The notes under the pieces: generated by a model
Databases searched by the model: none
Told to the model about the DNA's origin: nothing
The model's input: the letters and a program-made list of their open reading frames with translations, nothing else
Made by a program: the position numbers and the translations under genes
Shown: piece by piece, positions 43,242 through 54,758 of the stretch
How positions within the stretch are numbered: position 1 is the stretch's first letter
Layout: the number at the start of each line of letters is the position of its first letter
Origin: an uncultured Verrucomicrobiota bacterium
GTDB taxonomy: Bacteria; Verrucomicrobiota; Kiritimatiellia; JAAZAB01
DNA length: 64,000 bases
Direction: 5' to 3'
Assembly: GCA_964617825.1 (NCBI GenBank)
Contig: CAZTWL010000006.1
Coordinates: 23,315-87,314 of the forward strand

Positions 43242-43844
43242 CTAAGCCATCTCCGTCTTGCCCTGACCCCGCGGATATTGAGGAAGTCGCCGCGGCATCG
43301 TCGAGTTCGCCAAATCGTCGGCGAGCCGTAGAAGCGTATTTTTTATGCGCTTGCACTGGCTTTTGCTGAAAGGCGAAAGGCCAAGCAAAGCCGACATCCA
43401 AATGCCCTCGGTGGCCAGCGAAAGGAGCATCATGTGCTCGGGATTGGGCGATGTTTTGATAATTCTGGTTAAATTCTTCAGGTTCTTCTTGCGGATGGTC
43501 TGGAGCAATTGCGGCTCGCGGGTCAAAGCCGCCAGCAAAGCCATGGCCGCGCTGCGGTAATCTTCGCCGATAGCTGACCAGGTCAGGATATAGGCCTTGA
43601 TTTCGCGGACGGGGCTTGCCGGCAGCGACGACCGGATATTATCCAGGCGCTTTTCCATGCGGTCGACAAATCTCTTCAACATTGCCCGCAGAAAATCGCG
43701 CTGGCTTGGGAAATGATACATCAGCCCGCCCTTGCTGACGCCAGCCTTGGAAGCCACGGCATCCATGGTCATATGCTTTGCGCCCTTCTTCAGCACGATC
43801 TCTTCGGCTGCATCCAGTATGCGGTCGCGTGACGACGATTTCAT
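43242..43844 (-). CDS. TetR/AcrR-family transcriptional regulator
   Basis: It has the N-terminal TetR HTH (RDRILDAAEEIVLKKGAKHMTMDAVASKAGVSKGGLMYHFPSQ). Confidence 0.8.
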   Translation of the reverse strand: MKSSSRDRILDAAEEIVLKKGAKHMTMDAVASKAGVSKGGLMYHFPSQRDFLRAMLKRFVDRMEKRLDNIRSSLPASPVREIKAYILTWSAIGEDYRSAAMALLAALTREPQLLQTIRKKNLKNLTRIIKTSPNPEHMMLLSLATEGIWMSALLGLSPFSKSQCKRIKNTLLRLADDLANSTMPRRLPQYPRGQGKTEMA

Positions 43845-43869
43845 GCTAACTCCTCCCGTGTGGTTAAGG

Positions 43870-43891
43870 CTATACCAACTGGTCGGTATAG
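43870..43891. promoter_or_regulatory. palindromic putative TetR operator (CTATACCAACTGGTCGGTATAG)
   Basis: A near-perfect 22-bp palindrome 26 bp upstream of the tetR start codon. Confidence 0.4.
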
Positions 43892-44282
43892 TATCAATAT
43901 TATATTTGTCATCCGGAGGCCAGCATTACGCCGTTCTGGGAAGAATCCCGGCGCGACCAGTTCAACCGGCTTTCCGGCCCCTGGAACTGTGAGGGCCGCC
44001 AGCCCGAACCTGCTATGGAGTCGAGCGGCAGCCGCGCCAGACGCTTGGTATGACCATGCCGCCGGGGTGATCATCGTGCGGAAAACCTGTCGCCTGCCGG
44101 TTCCAAACCGGCGGCGGATGGGCCGGACCGCCGCCGAGAACGTGCCGTCACGGCCTGCAGTAGCGGTTCCTGTTGGAATTTGTCGGGTTTGCGCTAGCAT
44201 TCATGGACGCGACTTGCTACATTGACCGCCAACGTGTCTTGAACTGGTCGGATCGGCAAAGAGTCTGCCGGATCAGGCTATC

Positions 44283-44477
44283 GTGCAAGAACAAGAACGC
44301 TGGCTCTCGGTCGAGGAGATTGCCGTCCACCTAGGCGTCAATCGGGACACGATTTACAAGTGGATTGATCGGTGTCAGATGCCCGCCCACAAGCTCGGTA
44401 AGCTTTGGAAATTCAAGGCGACCGAGGTTGACGAGTGGATTCGAGAGGGCAAAGCAGGCGAAGGGGAACGCAAGTGA
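44283..44477 (+). CDS. small excisionase/AlpA-family HTH DNA-binding protein
   Basis: 64 aa. An LSVEEIAVHLGVNRDTIYKWI helix-turn-helix is present. This is the first gene of the lower-GC island. Confidence 0.6.
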   Translation: MQEQERWLSVEEIAVHLGVNRDTIYKWIDRCQMPAHKLGKLWKFKATEVDEWIREGKAGEGERK

Positions 44478-44511
44478 ACATGACCTCGATCATGGGAATG
44501 GGACGGACGTA

Positions 44512-47500
44512 ATGCCCCAGATATTCGACAACATCGAGAAGCACCTTCTGACGGCCCTCTCCGAAGCGATGGGACTCTCGAAGAGGTCTGATTTCTGCGT
44601 CGGCTACTTCAACCTTCGCGGATGGCGGCAGATTGATTCCTTCGTCGAGAAATGGCCTGGTGGGGACGGCAACTGTTGCCGGTTAATGGTCGGCATGCAG
44701 ACCCTTCCGGCCGAGGATCTCCACGCTGCCCTCAGTCTCGCCACAACACCAGCCCGCATGGACAACGCCACGGCGCTCCGTCTGAAGAAGGCGCTGGCGG
44801 AGGAGTTCCGTAACCAGCTCTGTATCGGCGCGCCTACCGAAGATGACGAACGTGGCCTCCGCCGATTGGCCGCCCAGATCAAAGCGCAGAAGGTCGTCGT
44901 CAAACTCTTCGTCAAGCACCCGCTGCATGCCAAGCTCTACCTCCTTTTTCGCCCAGACCCGATCAACCCCATCGTCAGTTATCTCGGCAGCAGCAATCTC
45001 ACCCTGGCGGGCCTGTCCAAACAGGGCGAGTTGAACGTGGACGTGCTCGACCATGATGCCACCCAGAAACTCGCAAGGTGGTTTGAAGACCGATGGAACG
45101 ATCACTGGTGCCTCGATATCTCGAAGGAGCTGGTCGAGATCATCGAAACGAGCTGGGCGCGAGAGACGCCCATCCCGCCGTATCACATCTACCTGAAGAT
45201 CGCCTATTGCCTCTCCCAAGAGGCCCGCGCTGGCCTCACCGAGTTCCGCATCCCCAAGGAGTTCGGGAACAAGCTCTTTGATTTCCAGAAAGCTGCGGTC
45301 AAGATCGCCGCTCATCATCTGAACAAGCGTCACGGCGTTATGATCGGCGACGTGGTCGGGCTGGGCAAGACCATCATGGCAACCGCCGTGGCCCGCATCT
45401 TCGAAGATGACCACGGTCTGGAGACCCTGATCATCTGCCCGAAGAACCTCGTTCGCATGTGGGAGGACTACAAGGAGCAGTACCGGCTGCATGCCAGGGT
45501 TCTCTCCATCACCCGGGCCATTGCCGAACTGCCCGAGTGTCGCCGTTACCGTCTCGTCGTGGTGGACGAGAGTCACAACCTCCGCAACCGCGAGGGCAAG
45601 CGCTACCACGCCATCCGCGACTACATAGAGAAGAACGAAAGCCGTGTTATCCTGCTGTCGGCCACGCCTTACAACAAGAGCTACCTCGACCTGGCCAGCC
45701 AACTCCGACTCTTCGTTGCCGAAGACCGTGACCTCGGCATCCGCCCGGAGCGCTTGCTTCAGGAAGTTGGCGAGACCGAGTTCATCCGACAGCACCAGTG
45801 CGCGGTCCGTTCGCTCGCTGCTTTCGAGCACAGCGAACACCCGGACGACTGGCGTGAACTCATGCGACTCTACCTTGTCCGTCGCACGCGCAGTTTCATT
45901 CAGGACAACTATGCGCAGTATGACCCCCAGCGGAAACAGAAGTTCCTGACCTTTGAAGACGGACGCCGTTCCTATTTCCCGACGCGCGTTCCCAAGACGC
46001 TCAAGTTCCGCGTGGACGAGTGCGACAAGAACGATCAGTACGGCCGCCTCTACTGCGAGGACGTGGTCAAGATCATAAACAAACTCGATCTGCCGCGCTA
46101 TGGTCTGGGTAACTACGTCGCGCCGTCGTCGGACAAGCCCCCATCACAACCCGAGGCCAAACAGATCGAGGACCTATCCCGCGCCGGCAAACGCCTCATG
46201 GGGTTCTGTCGGACGGGCCTTTTCAAGCGTCTGGAGAGTAGCGGTGCGGTCTTCCTGCAGTCCATCGAGCGCCATATCCTACGCAACTATGTCTACATAC
46301 ATGCCATCGAGAACGGTTTTCCGGTCCCCATCGGCACGCAGGATGTGGAAATGCTCGACTCGCGCGTGTACGACGAAGATGCCGACGACGTAAACGCCCG
46401 TCTCGATATTGAGGAGGACGCGACCGAGGAAGCGGCCAACGCCTGCCAGCAACCGCTGCGCACCCCAGAGCAATTCCGTGCCAAAGCCAAAGAGGTCTAT
46501 GAGTTCTACGACAAACACGCCAAGCGCCGCTTCAAGTGGCTGCGGTCCGGCCTGTTCATCGCCGAACTGCGTGATGACCTCGAAAACGATGCCAAAAGCC
46601 TGCTGAAAATTCTGAAGAGCGCCGGGCAGTGGGAACCAGCGGCCGACACAAAACTGCAGACCCTTGCCGCCACCCTCAAGAAGACGCACCCCGGCGACAA
46701 GGTTATAATCTTTACCCAGTTCGCCGACACCGCCCGCTACCTGGAGCGCCAACTTTCTGCCATGAGCGTGGACCGTATCGCGGGTGCGACCGGCGATTCC
46801 AGCGACCCGACCCTTATCGCCTGGCGGTTCAGCCCTGTGAGCAATGGCAAGTGCGCCAGTGTCGCTCCTCTCGATGAACTTCGCGTCCTCGTTGCTACCG
46901 ATGTCCTCAGCGAAGGCCAGAACCTCCAGGATTGTCACATCGTCGTCAACTACGACCTGCCCTGGGCCATCATTCGGCTCATTCAGCGTGCGGGCCGGGT
47001 GGACCGCATCGGTCAGGAGGCGGACACCATCGTCTGTTACTCGTTCCTGCCCGCAGAGGGCGTGGAGAAGATCATCCGCCTCCGCAGTCGGGTTCGCCAG
47101 CGGCTTCAACAGAACCAAGAGGTCGTCGGGGCTGACGAACTCTTCTTCGAAGACCAGCGCGACGAAGCCAAGGCACTCAACGATCTCTACACCGAGAAGG
47201 CCGGTATCCTTGACGGCGAGGCCGACAACGAAGTGGACCTTTCGTCCTACGCTTACCAAATATGGAAGAACGCCCTTGATGCCAATCCAGAACTGGAGAA
47301 GATCGTCCCCGAACTACCGCCGGTGGTGTACAGCTCGCGACCCTGGTCCCCAACTTCCGAAAAACCCGAGGGTGTCCTGGTCTACCTCAAGACAGCTGAC
47401 GGCAACGATGCCCTGGCCTGGATGAACAAAGCTGGTGAGAGCGTCACAGAATCCCAGTACGCTATCCTGCGCGCGGCCGAGTGCAAACCGGAAACGCCGC

Positions 47501-47895
47501 ACGTGTCCCGCCATGTTAACCATCATCAACTGGTGCAGGAGGGCGTCAAACTGATCGTGAAGGAGGAGCGCGCCATCGGCGGCCAGCTCGGGCGGCCATC
47601 CGGCGCGCGCTTCCGCACCTACGAACGCCTGAAAGCCCACGCCGAGGATATTGAGGGTACGCTCTTCGAGTCGACATTGCTGCACAAGGCCATAGAACAG
47701 ATCTACCGTTACCCGCTCCGCCAAACCGCCGTTGACACACTCAACCGTCAACTTCGGTCAGGCATCACCAACCAGGCGCTCGCCGATCTCGTCATGGCCC
47801 TGTACGAAGAAGACCGGCTTTGCATCGTCCATGAGAAGGAAGAAAGCCACGAGCCCCGTATCATCTGCTCTATGGGGTTGAGGGCAGGTGAGTAG
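44512..47895 (+). CDS. PLD-like (HKD) nuclease domain fused to SNF2-family helicase (DrmC+DrmD-like)
   Basis: About 1,128 aa from the ATG at 44512. Single HKD motif (HAKLYLL...GSSNLT). SNF2 motif I (GLGKT), motif II (DESH) and helicase-C (ATDVLSEGQNLQ, QRAGRVDRIGQ) are all present. Confidence 0.8.
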   Translation: MPQIFDNIEKHLLTALSEAMGLSKRSDFCVGYFNLRGWRQIDSFVEKWPGGDGNCCRLMVGMQTLPAEDLHAALSLATTPARMDNATALRLKKALAEEFRNQLCIGAPTEDDERGLRRLAAQIKAQKVVVKLFVKHPLHAKLYLLFRPDPINPIVSYLGSSNLTLAGLSKQGELNVDVLDHDATQKLARWFEDRWNDHWCLDISKELVEIIETSWARETPIPPYHIYLKIAYCLSQEARAGLTEFRIPKEFGNKLFDFQKAAVKIAAHHLNKRHGVMIGDVVGLGKTIMATAVARIFEDDHGLETLIICPKNLVRMWEDYKEQYRLHARVLSITRAIAELPECRRYRLVVVDESHNLRNREGKRYHAIRDYIEKNESRVILLSATPYNKSYLDLASQLRLFVAEDRDLGIRPERLLQEVGETEFIRQHQCAVRSLAAFEHSEHPDDWRELMRLYLVRRTRSFIQDNYAQYDPQRKQKFLTFEDGRRSYFPTRVPKTLKFRVDECDKNDQYGRLYCEDVVKIINKLDLPRYGLGNYVAPSSDKPPSQPEAKQIEDLSRAGKRLMGFCRTGLFKRLESSGAVFLQSIERHILRNYVYIHAIENGFPVPIGTQDVEMLDSRVYDEDADDVNARLDIEEDATEEAANACQQPLRTPEQFRAKAKEVYEFYDKHAKRRFKWLRSGLFIAELRDDLENDAKSLLKILKSAGQWEPAADTKLQTLAATLKKTHPGDKVIIFTQFADTARYLERQLSAMSVDRIAGATGDSSDPTLIAWRFSPVSNGKCASVAPLDELRVLVATDVLSEGQNLQDCHIVVNYDLPWAIIRLIQRAGRVDRIGQEADTIVCYSFLPAEGVEKIIRLRSRVRQRLQQNQEVVGADELFFEDQRDEAKALNDLYTEKAGILDGEADNEVDLSSYAYQIWKNALDANPELEKIVPELPPVVYSSRPWSPTSEKPEGVLVYLKTADGNDALAWMNKAGESVTESQYAILRAAECKPETPHVSRHVNHHQLVQEGVKLIVKEERAIGGQLGRPSGARFRTYERLKAHAEDIEGTLFESTLLHKAIEQIYRYPLRQTAVDTLNRQLRSGITNQALADLVMALYEEDRLCIVHEKEESHEPRIICSMGLRAGE

Positions 47896-47931
47896 TAATT
47901 AGACAATGCAGAAACAACAAGGAGGCTTCGT

Positions 47932-48270
47932 ATGGCGGAGAAATGGACGCAGGAATTACGAAGGATTGCTTTTGCGCGTTTAGCCATGGAGTTTGGCTCG
48001 CAATATTGGGATAAAAACAAGACAGAACTATCCTTCCCAAAACTTACGACTGAGGATGAGGTGTTGGAGCAGATTGCCCGGTACCTCACATGGTTCACTG
48101 GCGAGACGTTTACGGGCAAGAACGTCAACGCACAACTCGCATGGGCAAAGACTGAGCAAAAGCAGGTCATGAAGACCCAGACCAAACAGTTCGTCCTGTG
48201 CCAGGCGGCAGCCTATGAGGTTGGTTTGATTCGCAACCAACCCGCACGTGCGACGACTATTGGTGTATGA
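47932..48270 (+). CDS. hypothetical 112-aa protein between helicase and methyltransferase genes
   Basis: The ORF has a plausible RBS and sits inside the operon. No similarity recognised. Confidence 0.4.
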   Translation: MAEKWTQELRRIAFARLAMEFGSQYWDKNKTELSFPKLTTEDEVLEQIARYLTWFTGETFTGKNVNAQLAWAKTEQKQVMKTQTKQFVLCQAAAYEVGLIRNQPARATTIGV

Positions 48271-48312
48271 TGCTTTGGCAATATAAGCTTTCAGGATTTC
48301 TTCGAAATCGGA

Positions 48313-51300
48313 GTGGATACATTCATGAACAAAGCCACCGCCCGTGAACTCCTTCGCCAGTTTGACTTCAAAGCGCTCTTCCTCAACGAACTCGGCTGGG
48401 ACGATCACGACGGCTCGCTGCCCCTCAAGGTCGGCGAGGATACTGTCACATTGACCGCGGTCGCCGAGAAGCGCGGCATGGCGGCTTACCTTTGCGTCGT
48501 GCCCGGACAGAGGCGATCCTACGACTACCAGACGCGCTGCAAGATCGAAATCCAACTCGCCAAGAGCGTCCGCGAGCATCTGGTCATTTACGCCGATCCC
48601 AACCGTCGCTTCCAGACCTGGCAGTGGGTTAAACGTGAGCCCGGCAAACCTATCGCCCGCCGCGAGCACACGCTCACCGCCAACCAATCCGGTGAGGCTC
48701 TTCTCCAGAAAATTGAAGCCCTGGAGGTCAAGATCGAGGAAGAGGATCAACTCACTCTCGTCGGCATCACCGCGCGTGCACGCCAGGCATTCGACGTGGA
48801 CCGCGTCACCAAGCGCTTCTACGACCGCTTCAAGACCGAGCACGCCGCCTTCCTCAAACAGATTGAAGGCATTGGCGACGAAGACGAGTGCGAATGGTAC
48901 GCATCGATCATGCTCAATCGTCTCAAGTTTGTGTACTTCATTCAGAAGAAGGGTTTCCTCGACCAGGACAAGGACTACCTGCGCAACCGTCTTGCCATGG
49001 TCCAGAAGACCCGACCAAAGACGAAATTCCTCACTTTCTACCGAGCTTTTCTATTGAAGCTCTTCCACGACGGCCTCGGCCGCAAGGAACGCAGTCCCGA
49101 GCTGCACAAACTTCTCGGCACTGTGCCATATCTGAATGGCGGTATCTTTGCCGTCCACCCTCTGGAGGAGAAATACACCGGGATTGATATCCCGGACAAA
49201 GCCTTCGAAAAAGTTTTTGCTTTTTTTGACCAATACCGCTGGCATTTGGACGAGCGTCCCCTCCGTGCCGACGACGAGATCAACCCCGATGTTCTCGGCT
49301 ACATCTTCGAAAAGTACATCAACCAGAAGCAGATGGGGGCCTACTACACCAAGGAAGATATTACCGAGTACATCGCCAAGAACTGCATCGTTCCCTTCAT
49401 CCTCGACCGCGTCGAAACAGACCTCAAGAAGAAACCGGACGCCTTCCGCGCCCTTTTCCAACTGTTGGCCGCCGATCCTGACCGCTACATCTACGATCCC
49501 GTTAAACACGGCGTTGTGCTACCGCTACCGCCCGAGATCGAAAAGGGTGTGGATACGAAGAAGCCGAATCTTATGGAACGCCGCGCTGCCTGGAATAAAC
49601 CCGCCTCATCCGAGTATGCCCTTCCGACCGAGATCTGGCGTGAGGTCGTCGCCCGTCGTCAGCGCTGTGCCGAGTTGCGAACTCGCCTTTCCGCCATTAT
49701 GCCCGATGCCGCCCAATCATTCACAGCAAACGAACTGATCACCCTCAATCTGAACATTCGCCAGTTTGCCCAGGACTGCATCGAGAACGCCGCCACCCCG
49801 GACGTCCTCTGGGCGTTCTGGCAGGCCATCGAACAGATCACTGTCCTCGACCCCACCTGCGGATCAGGTGCATTTCTGTTTGCGGCTGTCAACGTGCTGG
49901 AACCGCTCTACGAAGCTTGCCTGGACCGTATGAAGGCGTTTATGCTCGAATGGCGCCAATCTATCAAGGCACCGTACCCCAACTTCTACAACAAATTCGA
50001 CGCCGTCATTGCGCGCGTCGAAAAACACGCCAACGAAAAGTATTTTATCTTCAAGTCCATTATCATTCGCAATCTCTACGGCGTCGACATCATGGATGAG
50101 GCTGTCGAGATCTGCAAACTACGTCTATTTCTTAAACTTGCTGCCCAGATCGAGCCTGATTATTCTCAAGAGAATCTTGGTATAGAGCCCCTGCCGGACA
50201 TTGATTTCAATGTCCGCGCTGGCAACACGCTAGTTGGCTTTGCCACGGAGAAACAAGCCGAGGAAGTCATCCGACAGGATCTGTTGGCCTACAACACCGT
50301 TTGGCCGGAGGTTCAGCGTGATGTCAAAGAGATCGCGGAGATGTTTGCCTTGTTTCGGCAGCAACAGACAGACCTGGGTGGTGCAGTATGCTCAGAAGAT
50401 AAAGCGCGTCTTCGCAAACGTATTACGCCTCTTGAGGCGCGACTCAATCAGTATCTAGCAGATGCTTACGACATCAACACGAAGGCTGCCGTCAAGGAGT
50501 GGGTTTCAAAGCACAAACCCTTCCACTGGTTTATCGAGTTTTATGCCATTATTTCGAGTGGTGGATTCTGTGTGGTCATAGGTAACCCTCCTTATGTGGA
50601 GTGCCATAAGAACACCAAAGGGACAATTGCCCTTGTGGATGAATACAAGACGCACGATACCGCGAACCTATATCCGTTTATAGTGGAGCGTTCCACGCAT
50701 CTCGTGCGGCCCCGCGGCAGTCTCGGTGTCATTCTACCCCTCAGCGCATTCTGTACTCAGAGAATGGAACCTCTCGTTTCGCTCATCGTCGAACTTCCTG
50801 GTGACAAGTGGATCTCCCACTTCGGGTGGCGACCGGCTACACTCTTTAGTGGTGTTAACATCCCCCTGTCAATTATACTCTGCTTACCGCACTCAGGTTC
50901 ACGGCTGTATACCACGACCTTCCAAAAATGGTACCAAGAAGCCCGTGATTACTTATTTTCACTGATCCAATACGCCGACACCGAAGGATTTGTTCAGAAC
51001 AAATACGTCATCCCTAAGATCGGCAACTCTACGGAACAGTCCATTCTTCGCAAGGCCTTCTCGCAAGGTAAGACTGTTGCCGCTTACCTCGCCGGTGGGA
51101 AACAAGGCGCGACATTATACTACCGGAATACAGGTGGGCTCTATTGGCGGATCATCACCGACTTCCAACCATTGTTTGAACTAGATCACACGAGAATGGC
51201 CTCAAGCACGGAGTCAACACTCATCCTCCGCGATACCAAAGCCCTTAGTGCAATAACCGCGGTCCTTAATACCAACTTCTTCTGGCTCTACTACGTAGTC

Positions 51301-51639
51301 TATTCCTCGTTCCACCACGTAAATCCTATCGACATTCTCACCGTACCGATCGATCTTGAAAGCGTTTCGCCAGATCTGTTGAAGAAGCTCTGTGACTGTG
51401 AGCGGAGACTCATGGATGACCTTAAGGCCAAAAGTCAGATACGACTCCGCTGCCACAAGGGTGGCAACGAGAGCAGTGCCCAGACGTTCTTCCCCTCCAG
51501 ATCCAAACCACTCGTCGACGCCACGGACATCGTCGTGGCTATGCACTATGGGTTTTCCCCGCACGAACTAGACTACATTCTCAACTACGACATCAAATAC
51601 AGGACGGTAGGCACGGCCGACGAGGAGGAAGACGAATGA
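48313..51639 (+). CDS. large N6-adenine DNA methyltransferase (Eco57I/DrmMI/PglX-like, gamma-class)
   Basis: 1,108 aa. SAM motif I (VLDPTCGSGAFL) and catalytic NPPY (VIGNPPYV) are present, with long N- and C-terminal extensions. Confidence 0.8.
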   Translation: MDTFMNKATARELLRQFDFKALFLNELGWDDHDGSLPLKVGEDTVTLTAVAEKRGMAAYLCVVPGQRRSYDYQTRCKIEIQLAKSVREHLVIYADPNRRFQTWQWVKREPGKPIARREHTLTANQSGEALLQKIEALEVKIEEEDQLTLVGITARARQAFDVDRVTKRFYDRFKTEHAAFLKQIEGIGDEDECEWYASIMLNRLKFVYFIQKKGFLDQDKDYLRNRLAMVQKTRPKTKFLTFYRAFLLKLFHDGLGRKERSPELHKLLGTVPYLNGGIFAVHPLEEKYTGIDIPDKAFEKVFAFFDQYRWHLDERPLRADDEINPDVLGYIFEKYINQKQMGAYYTKEDITEYIAKNCIVPFILDRVETDLKKKPDAFRALFQLLAADPDRYIYDPVKHGVVLPLPPEIEKGVDTKKPNLMERRAAWNKPASSEYALPTEIWREVVARRQRCAELRTRLSAIMPDAAQSFTANELITLNLNIRQFAQDCIENAATPDVLWAFWQAIEQITVLDPTCGSGAFLFAAVNVLEPLYEACLDRMKAFMLEWRQSIKAPYPNFYNKFDAVIARVEKHANEKYFIFKSIIIRNLYGVDIMDEAVEICKLRLFLKLAAQIEPDYSQENLGIEPLPDIDFNVRAGNTLVGFATEKQAEEVIRQDLLAYNTVWPEVQRDVKEIAEMFALFRQQQTDLGGAVCSEDKARLRKRITPLEARLNQYLADAYDINTKAAVKEWVSKHKPFHWFIEFYAIISSGGFCVVIGNPPYVECHKNTKGTIALVDEYKTHDTANLYPFIVERSTHLVRPRGSLGVILPLSAFCTQRMEPLVSLIVELPGDKWISHFGWRPATLFSGVNIPLSIILCLPHSGSRLYTTTFQKWYQEARDYLFSLIQYADTEGFVQNKYVIPKIGNSTEQSILRKAFSQGKTVAAYLAGGKQGATLYYRNTGGLYWRIITDFQPLFELDHTRMASSTESTLILRDTKALSAITAVLNTNFFWLYYVVYSSFHHVNPIDILTVPIDLESVSPDLLKKLCDCERRLMDDLKAKSQIRLRCHKGGNESSAQTFFPSRSKPLVDATDIVVAMHYGFSPHELDYILNYDIKYRTVGTADEEEDE

Positions 51640-52412
51640 AAAAGGCACTGTGGAAAGCACTTGCAGCGGTTACTGCGAAGAAGAAGACAAACTACACCGA
51701 ATCAGAACTGATTCTCCCAGCCTTGAGGCTCTTGGCTGGTCGCACTACCCCCGTTACGACATCCGACTTGATCGCCCAACTGGAGGCCGATCTTCGTCCC
51801 AAAGGTCACGACGCAGAACTGATCCAAGGCCGCAATGACACCTACTTTAGTCAGAAGGTACGGAACCTCAAGTCACACGATTCATTGAAGCGCCTGAGAC
51901 TCGCGAAACACCATGCAGGGAAGTGGCAGATTACAGAAAGCGGTAGGGACTTCCTTGCAAACAGCACATTGCATGTTGAAAGCATGCTGAATCAAGGCTT
52001 TAGACCCCGGTGCCTGAGCAGACGTGATCAGTTTGACTACTCCAAGCTTGTCATAGAGGAGGGAGCAAGCATTCCTACTTTAGGTCAGGCACGCAAGAGA
52101 AGCGACAGATTGAAGGCTATCGCCATTTCATCTTTCAAAAGAGACAACAAAGGGCGCGTATTCTGCACCGTGTGCGACTTTGACTTCGCCCGCAAGTACG
52201 GTTCTCACGGACGAGGCTTCATCGAAGTACATCATCTGGATCCCATCTTTGAGAAAGATGTGCGGGGAGAAAAGGTTCAACTGCTAAAGGCTCTGACCAG
52301 AGTCACACTTGTCTGCTCTAATTGTCATCGTATGATTCACCGCCGCAAAGGACACATGCTTGGGATAACAGCATTGAAGAAGCTTGTCTTGGCGCATAAG
52401 TGCAAGTCGTAG
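51636..52412 (+). CDS. HNH endonuclease with N-terminal winged-helix-like domain
   Basis: The C-terminal CxxC...HH...CxxCH HNH motif (CTVCDF...EVHHLDPI...CSNCHRMIH) is present. The start codon overlaps the MTase stop (ATGA). Confidence 0.75.
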   Translation: MKKALWKALAAVTAKKKTNYTESELILPALRLLAGRTTPVTTSDLIAQLEADLRPKGHDAELIQGRNDTYFSQKVRNLKSHDSLKRLRLAKHHAGKWQITESGRDFLANSTLHVESMLNQGFRPRCLSRRDQFDYSKLVIEEGASIPTLGQARKRSDRLKAIAISSFKRDNKGRVFCTVCDFDFARKYGSHGRGFIEVHHLDPIFEKDVRGEKVQLLKALTRVTLVCSNCHRMIHRRKGHMLGITALKKLVLAHKCKS

Positions 52413-52461
52413 CCGAACGCAGGTATCCTCACTGAAAATAGGAAAGCGGACTAGCCAACGC

Positions 52462-53058
52462 ATGAAGACACTGCGCACAGCCGGGAACTATATCCTTCTC
52501 AACCGTCCCAAGATCGCCCTGTACTGTTCCGCCAAGTGCCCGGGCAAACTGATCCTGGACACTTACGACCTCGCCAAGCAGTGCCGGGAAAAGGGTGTCA
52601 CGGTCATTAGCGGCTTTCATTCCCCGATGGAGGAGGAGTGCCTCCGTATCTTGCTCCGCTCGACGCATCCGGTAATCTGGTGCCTTGCCCGCAGCATGCT
52701 TAAACGCATTCCCACAAAGCCCGTTGATTGCCGCGCCGCAGTCGCCGAAGGTCGCCTCTTGATCGTATCACCATTTAAAGATACCGTTCGCCATATCACG
52801 GCCAAAACCGCTATGGCCCGTAACCGATTCGTCGCTGAAAAGGCATCTGCTGTTGTTGTCGCCCACGCTGCCCCCGGCAGCAAGATCGAAGCCCTCAGCC
52901 TGGAACTACTTGCCGTTGGCAAGCCTCTCTACACCTTTGACCACCCCGCCAATGCAGTCCTTCTCACTCAAGGCGCAAGAGATATACGTCAACTTAACCT
53001 CGCGGAATTTGCATACATGAGAGGTAAGGTGACCTGCTCCCCAAAAACTGATCCATGA
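52462..53058 (+). CDS. DprA/Smf-like (SLOG superfamily) Rossmann-fold protein
   Basis: The ALYCSAKCPGKLILDTYDLAKQCREKGVTVISGFHSPMEEECLRILL pattern parallels the DprA Rossmann core (xxGSR...vvSGlArGiD..ah). The six-frame ORF starts at 52384. Confidence 0.45.
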   Translation: MKTLRTAGNYILLNRPKIALYCSAKCPGKLILDTYDLAKQCREKGVTVISGFHSPMEEECLRILLRSTHPVIWCLARSMLKRIPTKPVDCRAAVAEGRLLIVSPFKDTVRHITAKTAMARNRFVAEKASAVVVAHAAPGSKIEALSLELLAVGKPLYTFDHPANAVLLTQGARDIRQLNLAEFAYMRGKVTCSPKTDP

Positions 53059-53294
53059 CAGAAGAGAGTCCTCCGGTACCGCGTTGTCAAAGATCGGGAG
53101 CCGTGGTTTCAGATCATAATGAGCCAGAAGTTCGAGTTTGACGAAAAGACCGCAGCGGATCTGGCCCGTCGGGTTCCGCTACCAGAAGCCCTGGCCCGGT
53201 CGCTTGTCTTTGACCTTCGGCGATTTTGGTAGCGGTCAGGTCTTAAGCCGGGATTTCAATGGGGACACTCGGCAGGGCATAAGCCTGCCATAGC

Positions 53295-54758
53295 CTAACT
53301 ATTCAAGTCAGAGGCCGTTTTCAACCTGCGCAAAATATCAATCAATCCCCCGGTGTCCTGCCCGCAATACTTTAACAGTTGTTTCCGCACCTTCTGCCTT
53401 TCCTGTTGGGGCACGTCGCCGAACGTCACCCGCATGAATTCATCGGCGGCAACGGAACCGCCGGCAATTTCCATGTTGGCATAAGATCGGTCCGTTATGG
53501 CTGGCATTACCCGCTTTAGTGAATTGCTGCCATACTGATTAGGATGATGATAGTCCGCTTTTCTAAAGGGCGCAATCAAATCCTTAATGCGTGGCAGAGC
53601 CCGGTTGATCCACGGGCGATGTTCAGGAAACGCCTGGGCCATTTGATCCAGCATGGATTTCTCGAATGCCATATTAAACGCCAAGATGGTGGCGGAATTG
53701 CCAATATGCTGCTTCAAGTTCGACAGCAATGCCGGCCGGGGATCGTGCCTGCCTTCCGCTAGAAATTCATGATGGACCGGTTGCGCTTTAAGTCCCGATA
53801 GGATGTGCAGCGAATACTGGAAGGGGATCTGCTGAAAAGGCTTGGTGCCGTCGTAGAGGGGGATTGCCGTATTGAATGACTCAAAATCCAGAAACCGGAT
53901 CGGATATTCAAGATCAGCCAGGAACTCCCTGATTGCTTCGGGATTAATATGCGGCTTGCGGGTCTTCACGCATTTGATCTGGATGCGCTGGTAAAGGCTT
54001 AATGTTGTGTTGGCGGGAATATCCCGGATATGAAGAATGCCTTTTTCCATAAATTCAAAGGCCCTGGCGCCGATCCGGTGTAAGTCAAAAACGTTATGTT
54101 TAGGGAGAAAGGCCCAGCATTGATCCTGGAACGGGCAGGCATAAGGCGAACTACAATGCGGGCCGACACGAATGTTAGGACATTTGGTATCCAGAGCCTT
54201 GATCATGACCGCAACCGATTTGGGCACGTCGCGAATCAACTCAGATACCTCCTTGGATATCAGGTTTACGTTGAATAGTTTGCTAACCTTGATCGGTCCA
54301 TTCTTGACATAATCACTGTTTATTGTGGCAATCCGACATTGACGGACAGGCAGGCCGGATTTGTCGCAAACGTATTTCTGAAACGCAACGTCCTGATAAT
54401 AGCAGTCTTTTATTTTTGCCGATGATTTGACCTCCACTATATCCCATCCACCCCGGACTGGTGCCAGGATGTCGATCTGGGCATACAGGTTGCCCGAGCC
54501 AATCGCCGCCTCATAAATGGGCTTCCGTTGAGTTAATGCGGCCTGGGTAGCTTTGATCCGGTCCGATATGCTCGATGTCGTATCAATCGCTATGCCGTCG
54601 GGGAATAGATTGCGGGCGCATAGGCCGACTTCCTGGCCGGCCATAAGGATTTTCTGGCGGGCAGCATCATAGACTATCAGCTCGGGCCGATGGATCCGAT
54701 TCCACAGGTATTTGAGACACTGTAATCCGGCCATGTAGCTGCTTTTGGATATATGCAT
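53295..54758 (-). CDS. DUF2779-like protein with N-terminal PD-(D/E)xK (Cas4/RecB-like) nuclease motif
   Basis: The N-terminus MHISKSSYMAGLQCLKYLW, a DIVEVKSS motif and conserved Cys residues match DUF2779. Confidence 0.5.
   Translation of the reverse strand: MHISKSSYMAGLQCLKYLWNRIHRPELIVYDAARQKILMAGQEVGLCARNLFPDGIAIDTTSSISDRIKATQAALTQRKPIYEAAIGSGNLYAQIDILAPVRGGWDIVEVKSSAKIKDCYYQDVAFQKYVCDKSGLPVRQCRIATINSDYVKNGPIKVSKLFNVNLISKEVSELIRDVPKSVAVMIKALDTKCPNIRVGPHCSSPYACPFQDQCWAFLPKHNVFDLHRIGARAFEFMEKGILHIRDIPANTTLSLYQRIQIKCVKTRKPHINPEAIREFLADLEYPIRFLDFESFNTAIPLYDGTKPFQQIPFQYSLHILSGLKAQPVHHEFLAEGRHDPRPALLSNLKQHIGNSATILAFNMAFEKSMLDQMAQAFPEHRPWINRALPRIKDLIAPFRKADYHHPNQYGSNSLKRVMPAITDRSYANMEIAGGSVAADEFMRVTFGDVPQQERQKVRKQLLKYCGQDTGGLIDILRRLKTASDLNS

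Follow-up and report, generated by a model that had tools for sequence, protein, structure and literature searches.

The gene at positions 51636-52412 of the 64,000-nucleotide (nt) stretch analysed here (hereafter the window, meaning the whole of this stretch), which derives from an uncultured bacterium of the Verrucomicrobiota, is predicted to encode a nuclease combining a winged helix-turn-helix (wHTH) domain with an HNH domain. It overlaps the end of the gene for a large adenine methyltransferase, in an operon that also encodes a PLD-SNF2 helicase-nuclease and a DprA-like protein. Our analyses favour, with a probability of roughly 60%, the interpretation of the HNH protein as a cognate restriction nuclease blocked by methylation, matched to the target-recognition domain (TRD) of the methylase and acting as the second nuclease of this PLD-SNF2/methylase/DprA-like system. 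The features concerned, with protein lengths in amino acids (aa), are the following.

51636-52412, forward strand: predicted wHTH-HNH nuclease gene (ATG start, 258 aa; from the list of open reading frames and from homologues)
51693-51992, forward strand: N-terminal winged-helix DNA-binding domain (residues ~20-119; recognition-helix motif GR.DTYFSQKVRNLKSH at residues 65-81, invariant in the family)
52146-52355, forward strand: C-terminal McrA-type zinc-ribbon HNH (beta-beta-alpha-Me) nuclease domain (residues ~171-240; invariant CxxC...HH...CxNCH...H)
51622-51639, forward strand: junction of the two genes, read from the sequence (Shine-Dalgarno-like GAGGAGGA at 51622-51629, 6-nt spacer, ATGA)
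48325-51639, forward strand: Eco57I/MmeI-like gamma-class N6-adenine DNA methyltransferase (1,104 aa from ATG 48325; GTG 48313 also possible, giving 1,108 aa)
50725-51474, forward strand: C-terminal variable region of the methylase, presumed TRD (residues ~801-1050, after NPPY; of the type that accompanies HNH genes)

The methylase carries motif I as DPTCGSG and motif IV as NPPY at residue 754, and its residues 800-1050 form a variable block between conserved segments; MmeI-type enzymes carry their TRD in the variable block that follows NPPY. Eighty methylases were aligned and their identities compared region by region, the N-terminal 780 residues being set against residues 800-1050. Over the former, the methylases linked to an HNH gene are on average 61% identical among themselves and 59% (maximum 81%) to the 75 HNH-less ones, and in a neighbour-joining tree of the same residues their common ancestor spans 58 of the 80 leaves. 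Over residues 800-1050, by contrast, identity is 51-65% within the HNH-linked set (44-72% in the region-wise comparison) as against 21-38% to the HNH-less methylases, and the TRDs of the HNH-linked methylases group in a single exclusive cluster out of some 25-34 TRD types. A hidden Markov model of this TRD built from five sequences scored 262-476 bits against seven held-out HNH-linked loci (L093, L094 and L174-L178), the lowest value belonging to a 205-aa fragment in L094 and the others being at least 319, while none of the 75 HNH-less methylases exceeded 204 bits. In all, the HNH-type TRD was present in 12 of 12 HNH-linked methylases and in 0 of 75 without the gene.

The methylases are mosaic, their backbones and TRDs having different histories. 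In L176 and L013, for instance, the backbone is 73-81% identical to that of HNH-less methylases and the TRD is still of the HNH type, and HNH gene and TRD stay paired across HNH identities down to 43-47% and across differing backbones. Because the TRD is shared and the backbones form no clade, TRD and HNH gene appear to be one cassette that was recombined onto different backbones. As a control, eight pairs of loci with other homologous cargo in common were compared, and their TRDs differ (21-41% identity). Two trivial causes of the association were considered: phylogeny was rejected, the HNH-linked methylases being no clade over the N-terminal 780 residues, and hitch-hiking through adjacency was weakened, as other common cargo does not follow TRD type. 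On these grounds the specificity of the HNH protein would be matched to that of its partner methylase. No description of such a lock between TRD and nuclease was found in the literature searched.

The second line of evidence comes from the HNH family in other genomes, which is spread over bacteria, DPANN archaea and one temperate phage. Database homologues number at least 1,636, are mostly full length and are nearly all 235-275 aa long, which places the reading frame far beyond a chance one. In all 12 relatives whose context was looked up, a methylase, or a partial reading frame matching one (L174, L178), was adjacent or one gene off. Relatives with 43-62% identity stand in PLD-SNF2 operons (P0007, P0008, P0028, P0006, P0009, P0059, P0090 and P0110), directly after an Eco57I-like methylase or, in L174 and L178, behind a reading frame that appears homologous and is truncated by the contig edge. 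Relatives with 34-45% identity have a D12 or N6_N4 methylase close by, which may be convergent or overlap with them; among them are compact pairs resembling restriction-modification systems, convergent to a D12 methylase in P0038 and to an N6_N4 methylase in P0052 and P0070. A metagenome sample contained 32 full-length members, 23 of which had a directly adjacent amino-methyltransferase; this amounts to ~80% as about 28 of the 32 were evaluable by contig extent, and the two genes were often separated by -1 to +19 nt or overlapped convergently. By Pfam the partners are D12, N6_N4, fused N6_N4+D12 and paired N6_N4 methylases, to which a small methylase with an NPPF motif and no confident Pfam match has to be added; no C5-methylase partner was seen in ~30 loci. 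Methylase adjacency, the generic mark of a Type II restriction endonuclease, was thus observed across the family, and such linkage to several unrelated architectures is the signature of a restriction partner and not of an enzyme that depends on methylation and stands alone.

Across the family, conservation of the HNH protein is highest in residues 61-82 (GR.DTYFSQKVRNLKSH), which the model places as the recognition helix. Since this helix is invariant, one shared target is suggested, and the simplest reading would be that the whole family reads a single site, which all partner methylases modify; the fused and paired partners hint that this site may be asymmetric. The recognition site could not be derived from the partner methylases, since those of the D12 and N6_N4 types resemble solved methylases no further than around the catalytic motifs. 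The D12 partners (e.g. L104:4726-5973) measure 380-415 aa and share 50-60% identity over most of their length, and because they have an insert of ~120 aa between motif I and DPPY relative to Dam and DpnM, they are probably not GATC enzymes. The phage member, in the temperate Monoglobales phage CHVD 5762 (L172, PV036456.1, 3989-6525), is full length with 35% identity and lies ~1.7 kb from the integrase; its gene is followed by an overlapping 223-aa reading frame and then by a convergent DNA methyltransferase, one gene off.

At the junction, the ATG of the HNH gene (51636-51638) and the TGA stop of the methylase gene (51637-51639) have two bases in common (...GACGAATGA...), which confirms as an ATGA at 51636-51639 the overlap of start and stop codons that an earlier note on this DNA had claimed. 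The Shine-Dalgarno-like GAGGAGGA, 6 nt before the ATG, lies within the codons for the acidic C-terminal tail of the methylase, and a Shine-Dalgarno sequence with overlapping or abutting genes is also kept in L001, L004, L007, L174 and L175. Most related loci displayed have a Shine-Dalgarno sequence with ATGA, an overlap of 1-11 nt or a gap of at most 15 nt, the exceptions being L176, L177 and L178. This layout suggests translational coupling of the HNH protein to the methylase.

Compared with Pfam by itself, the window HNH protein matches Mrr_N (PF14338) over residues 24-108 with 18.8 bits, under the cut-off of 29.5, and HNH over residues 177-237 with 15.8-18.3 bits, under the cut-off of 21.4; it also has a weak match to the PADLOC model mREase_IV. 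The domain assignments stand because of evidence from the family. An alignment of 45 family sequences shows no variation at C177, C180, C227, C230, H199, H200, N229, H231 and H235, and with the family profile a match was obtained to the HNH domain of EcoKMcrA (PDB 6GHC, E=1e-4), the sole solved relative by sequence. The wHTH plus HNH architecture proposed earlier is borne out. PF01844 is precomputed on many homologues, and a search of PDB with the single sequence returned nothing useful. With all catalytic and zinc residues present, the protein is assigned to the HNH (beta-beta-alpha-Me) superfamily, and the invariance of these residues together with the McrA match makes the HNH domain look active as a nuclease.

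Under the favoured interpretation, the methylase would mark host DNA at the site read by its TRD, and the HNH protein, by way of its invariant recognition helix, would bind at that site too and cut it when unmethylated. The ATGA overlap and the internal ribosome-binding site would tie output of the HNH protein to prior or simultaneous translation of the methylase, and PLD-SNF2 would remain the ATP-driven nuclease of the system itself, giving this variant two independent nucleases. TRD and HNH gene would form a cassette, belonging to one lineage of specificity modules and swapped by recombination onto differing methylase backbones. Methylation sensitivity, the identity of the target site, nuclease activity and any cooperation between the HNH protein and PLD-SNF2 are what we infer in this scheme.

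The closest precedents are the Type II restriction-modification systems with HNH nucleases, whose families comprise KpnI, NlaIII, SphI, HphI, MnlI, Hpy99I and PacI (PMC2441816, a classification that lists the families without sequences). As in such pairs, a small HNH gene with intact HNH and zinc motifs adjoins or overlaps a methyltransferase gene, with ~80% linkage over the family. It differs from them in its partner, a 1,100-aa Eco57I/MmeI-like methylase within a helicase-nuclease operon, in a reader helix that is invariant across at least four methylase architectures, and in that no sequence link to a named restriction endonuclease family could be made, the protein having no match to PADLOC REase_II models or to NCBIfam. 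The comparison with KpnI-type enzymes drawn in the earlier note therefore holds as functional analogy, and not at the level of sequence, where the McrA HNH domain is the only solved relative.

Several points weigh against the interpretation of the HNH protein as a cognate nuclease. The window protein stays under the Pfam thresholds for both of its domains, and Type II enzymes do not usually keep an invariant reader helix while pairing with four or more unrelated methylase architectures. The TRD is encoded 3'-terminally in the methylase gene and adjoins the HNH gene, so that some co-inheritance is expected from adjacency alone; the cargo control argues otherwise, but the sample is of 12 loci only. 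Eco57I/MmeI-type methylases often modify only one strand, and this might be too little to keep a separate nuclease from cutting. The match between the specificities of the two proteins is putative. Elsewhere the same wHTH module is joined to two domains characteristic of modification-dependent systems, GmrSD_N and AAA_5 (McrB-like), and published winged-helix HNH (wH-HNH) proteins of this size depend on N6-methyladenine (m6A) (PMC11037411).

Among the alternatives, the one that survives best, and which we nonetheless regard as unlikely, is that the HNH protein is the docked subunit of a split enzyme resembling Type IIG: it would attach to the methylase, at its TRD or its C-terminal part, and be carried to unmethylated sites, possibly with PLD-SNF2, its winged helix providing non-specific affinity. 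A protein-protein interface would explain the strict lock between TRD and HNH gene equally well, a winged helix that stays invariant whatever the partner suits a non-specific role, and no nuclease-domain family was found among the Pfam matches of the methylase at E<=0.01. In addition, family members linked to Eco57I-like methylases have ~20 extra N-terminal residues that most other members lack, and this extension correctly foretold an Eco57I-like partner in three of three held-out look-ups (P0059, P0090 and P0110). The rest of the protein is, however, nearly identical between the groups, F/Y106 being the sole position that separates members with the extension, the mark of Eco57I linkage, from the others. 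Furthermore, the family also pairs with D12, N6_N4, fused and small methylases, in which no similarity to the HNH-type TRD was detectable; this speaks against a shared docking domain, and a docking surface specific for this TRD cannot be common to the whole family. An elaborate version, equally doubtful, would make TRD and HNH protein a portable "specificity plus cleavage" cassette in which the HNH protein, docked through its N-terminal extension, cooperates with the PLD nuclease, each cutting one strand, in a three-protein split machine akin to Type IIG or Type ISP and not described so far.

It is improbable, in our judgement, that the HNH protein is instead a stand-alone Type IV enzyme of the m6A-dependent wH-HNH class (SruGXI, HhiV4I), targeting foreign adenine methylation such as G6mATC and merely co-resident with a methylase that does not conflict with it. 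The earlier note had missed this rival, which is disfavoured here. The likeness is one of architecture and size, members of that class having a winged helix and a McrA-like HNH domain in 224-283 aa (258 aa in the window protein), and of neighbourhood, since 47 co-occurrences of (PUA-)wH-HNH proteins with Eco57I-like methylases were reported and read as conflict-free (PMC11037411); the weak Mrr_N and mREase_IV matches point the same way. In the published class, though, 87% of members have no methylase among three neighbours on each side, and toxicity was confined to Dam+ cells (PMC11037411). The family of the window protein, compared with that class by description, is mostly methylase-adjacent (~80% of evaluable members against 13%), many partners being of the Dam-class D12 type, and is tied to a single TRD type in its Eco57I-like partners. 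Avoidance of conflict by a merely co-resident enzyme would allow many TRD types, and the one type ever seen points to a nuclease that has to be protected by, or recruited through, one specificity. Neither HHPV4 nor any full-length halovirus relative was among the best 30 of 92 phage tblastn matches (E<=10), and no similarity to the winged helix of DpnI was detectable in the family. EcoKMcrA, with which the C-terminal zinc HNH domain is shared, has a different N-terminal domain and is a stand-alone enzyme dependent on 5-methylcytosine.

What keeps a Type IV role alive is the further use of the winged helix. The same module, of the FSQKVRNL type and with 42-53% identity, is fused elsewhere to other C-terminal domains (L134:2226-3044, L143:803-1693, L142:316-1770, L148:1532-4153, L163:402-1271 and L168:556-2007). 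These include AAA_5, GmrSD_N and HEPN_Apea; in L134 and L143 the partner is a domain of ~170 aa without assignment, encoded convergently to a D12 methylase, and another fusion is an 870-aa protein with matches to RNAP-alpha-CTD and sigma region 4. To judge from these sequences, the winged helix is a reusable defence module, some uses of which look modification-dependent.

The remaining genes of the parent operon and its downstream neighbour are listed here.

44512-47895, forward strand: PLD(HKD)-SNF2 helicase-nuclease (true start at M50 of the listed reading frame 44365-47895)
47932-48270, forward strand: orphan 112-aa reading frame (own strong Shine-Dalgarno sequence AAGGAGG 7 nt upstream)
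52462-53058, forward strand: DprA-like / PsyrA-like (SLOG-type) gene (Pfam DNA_processg_A 1.1e-9, PADLOC PsyrA 1.8e-18)
53295-54758, reverse strand: DUF2779 protein, 487 aa (Pfam 6.8e-39; weak NCBIfam match to the UU173 family), convergent and just past the DprA-like gene

The start of the PLD-SNF2 gene was set by alignment with three orthologues; the protein has Pfam matches to PLDc_2, SNF2-rel_dom and Helicase_C, and its HxK..D/GSxN, GLGKT and DESH motifs are intact. With the HNH motifs likewise intact, the operon does hold two distinct types of nuclease, HKD/PLD and HNH, as had been claimed. In a survey of 80 loci, one genome per species, retrieved with the methylase as query and scored for gene content by tblastn, PLD-SNF2 lay upstream of the methylase in nearly all loci and the DprA-like gene downstream in 49 of ~64 evaluable ones (loci L015-L092), directly adjacent in 12. 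The conserved core is therefore PLD-SNF2 and the methylase, usually with the DprA-like gene. The HNH gene was found in one locus only (L013). Its absence from homologous operons, named in the earlier note as a refuting condition, was thus largely borne out, the gene being missing from 79 of the 80 species-representative loci, and its rarity and its position in a cargo slot make it an accessory rather than a core component. The earlier proposal of a separate cognate nuclease accordingly stands with regard to the methylase linkage of the family and the TRD lock, and has to be amended in that the HNH gene accompanies one specificity module and does not define the system.

In the window the HNH gene sits between the methylase and the DprA-like gene, which follows it after 49 nt; the DprA-like gene also follows an HNH gene in L007, L004, L176 and L178. 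The methylase/DprA-like interval is a co-directional slot of 0-10 genes, in which 118 reading frames, 63 of them singletons, were counted. Its cargo, seen in L016-L092, includes OLD/Gabija/AriA-like ABC ATPases (8), Schlafen AlbA_2 proteins (7), DUF3644/PDC-S19 and TPR proteins, and the slot is a hotspot of defence genes inside a defence operon. Such diversity, and the absence of the HNH gene from all but one species-level locus, would suit an independent defence or selfish gene embedded after the methylase, its association with the TRD reflecting linkage alone. We consider this quite improbable, because other recurrent cargo does not follow TRD type, the HNH-TRD pairing survives deep divergence (HNH identity of 43-47%) and changes of backbone, the conserved overlap of start and stop with an internal Shine-Dalgarno sequence is atypical of random insertion, and the family has a methylase neighbour elsewhere too.

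A role outside restriction, as a methylase-coupled repair or nicking enzyme or as a homing-type HNH protein, is very improbable: a small nuclease gene overlaps a methylase gene by start and stop in vsr/dcm as well, but all partners here are amino-methyltransferases, for whose products we know of no lesion-repair logic, the gene stands in a defence operon and elsewhere in compact restriction-modification-like pairs, including that of a temperate phage, and its surroundings showed no intein, intron or terminase. That McrA-type HNH domains often nick DNA (PMC11037411) is the other point in favour of such a role.

As for the other genes of the locus, the 112-aa reading frame fills an insert of ~430 nt between the PLD-SNF2 and methylase genes; it had no Pfam or NCBIfam match and no tblastn match in 92 related loci, and is possibly a small accessory gene that is not conserved. 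The two genes abut in L001, L004 and L007, inserts of 1.8-2 kb separate them in other loci such as L091 and L068, and HipA-like genes occupy the junction in L177; with inserts of such differing content, it looks like a second variable slot. DprA-like proteins are antitoxins or regulators in PsyrTA and ShosTA. The HNH-bearing locus L178 (5292-7518) has a longer DprA-like gene (334 aa), and the gene behind it matches phosphoribosyltransferase and zinc-ribbon domains weakly in Pfam, an arrangement that resembles ShosTA. The flanks are unrelated to the operon, with TetR, FabH-like and GH20 genes upstream and the DUF2779 gene downstream on the opposite strand; the DUF2779 protein had no tblastn match in the 92 related loci. 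A scan of 43800-53400 for promoters and terminators gave counts indistinguishable from those in shuffled sequence and was uninformative on operon structure.

The methylase matches Eco57I (9.7e-22) and MmeI_Mtase (1.4e-9) in Pfam, as well as N6_Mtase and DUF7814 at E<=0.01, and a REBASE-derived PADLOC model of Type IIG enzymes (REase_MTase_IIG, PDLC03628) over its full length with 1015 bits; its closest solved relatives are the BREX proteins PglX/BrxX, with alignment around motif I only. The nearest methylase fragment by sequence, at 86% identity, is from a Verrucomicrobiota MAG. It shares with Type IIG enzymes (MmeI, Eco57I) a gamma-class domain with NPPY, and differs from them in that no N-terminal nuclease-domain family was recognised by Pfam at the same threshold. 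The contrast with the fused Type IIG arrangement made in the earlier note is upheld in this respect, the comparison as such being valid for the methyltransferase family only.

For the core of PLD-SNF2, Eco57I-like methylase and DprA-like gene, the literature searched yielded only related kinds of system (Type-2 BR, Hma, DnmA-YeeBC and PbeABCD). According to PMC12839542, the Type-2 BR system consists of a DUF499 ATPase, an HKD-Snf2 helicase, an N6-methyltransferase and DUF3780, and wHTH-HNH and other nucleases are auxiliary effectors inside BREX/BR loci. This system shares with the window operon the core of HKD-Snf2 helicase-nuclease and N6-adenine methylase; the window operon lacks DUF499 and DUF3780, with no Pfam match and no other large reading frame nearby, and its usual third partner is the DprA-like gene. 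A TRD-nuclease lock was not among the passages of that paper considered here. What was already known is therefore the presence of wHTH-HNH auxiliaries in BREX/BR loci (PMC12839542) and the co-occurrence of wH-HNH proteins with Eco57I-like methylases (PMC11037411).

DnmA-YeeB-YeeC, in which an MmeI-homologous methylase without nuclease motif is flanked by genes for a helicase and for a small putative nuclease (PMC9973331), follows the same logic, and only the logic, of an MmeI/Eco57I-family methylase with helicase and nuclease from separate genes; by description it is set apart by its gene order, by a YeeC with a T5orf172 instead of an HNH domain and by a YeeB without PLD. Hma (PMC11232893) is likewise an operon of Snf2-nuclease and methylase that serves as an insertion hotspot, and PADLOC HEC models match cargo of the slot described above; HmaA, however, has a C-terminal PD-(D/E)XK nuclease and is matched only weakly by the window helicase (4e-22), and HmaC is an ATPase. 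DISARM class 1, defined by a core of DrmA and DrmB (DUF1998) with DrmD, DrmMI and DrmC, differs from the window operon, which has no DrmA or DrmB-like gene; its helicase scores 153 bits against DrmD, the cut-off being 610.

The class of gene described here is ordinary, and the noteworthy part is its behaviour as a cassette and the large, invariant and uncharacterised family to which it belongs. If the favoured interpretation is true, comparing TRD type with methylase backbone would separate functionally coupled accessory genes from unrelated cargo of a hotspot, and small wH-HNH proteins should not all be annotated as Type IV enzymes that depend on m6A. The HNH proteins would in that case constitute a family of at least 1,636 methylase-partnered restriction nucleases with a nearly invariant reader helix, a candidate source of a new conserved specificity. 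Systems built on a helicase-nuclease and a methylase would then gain a second nuclease through the swap of a TRD-plus-nuclease cassette, by which a switch of specificity would be linked to the gain of an effector.

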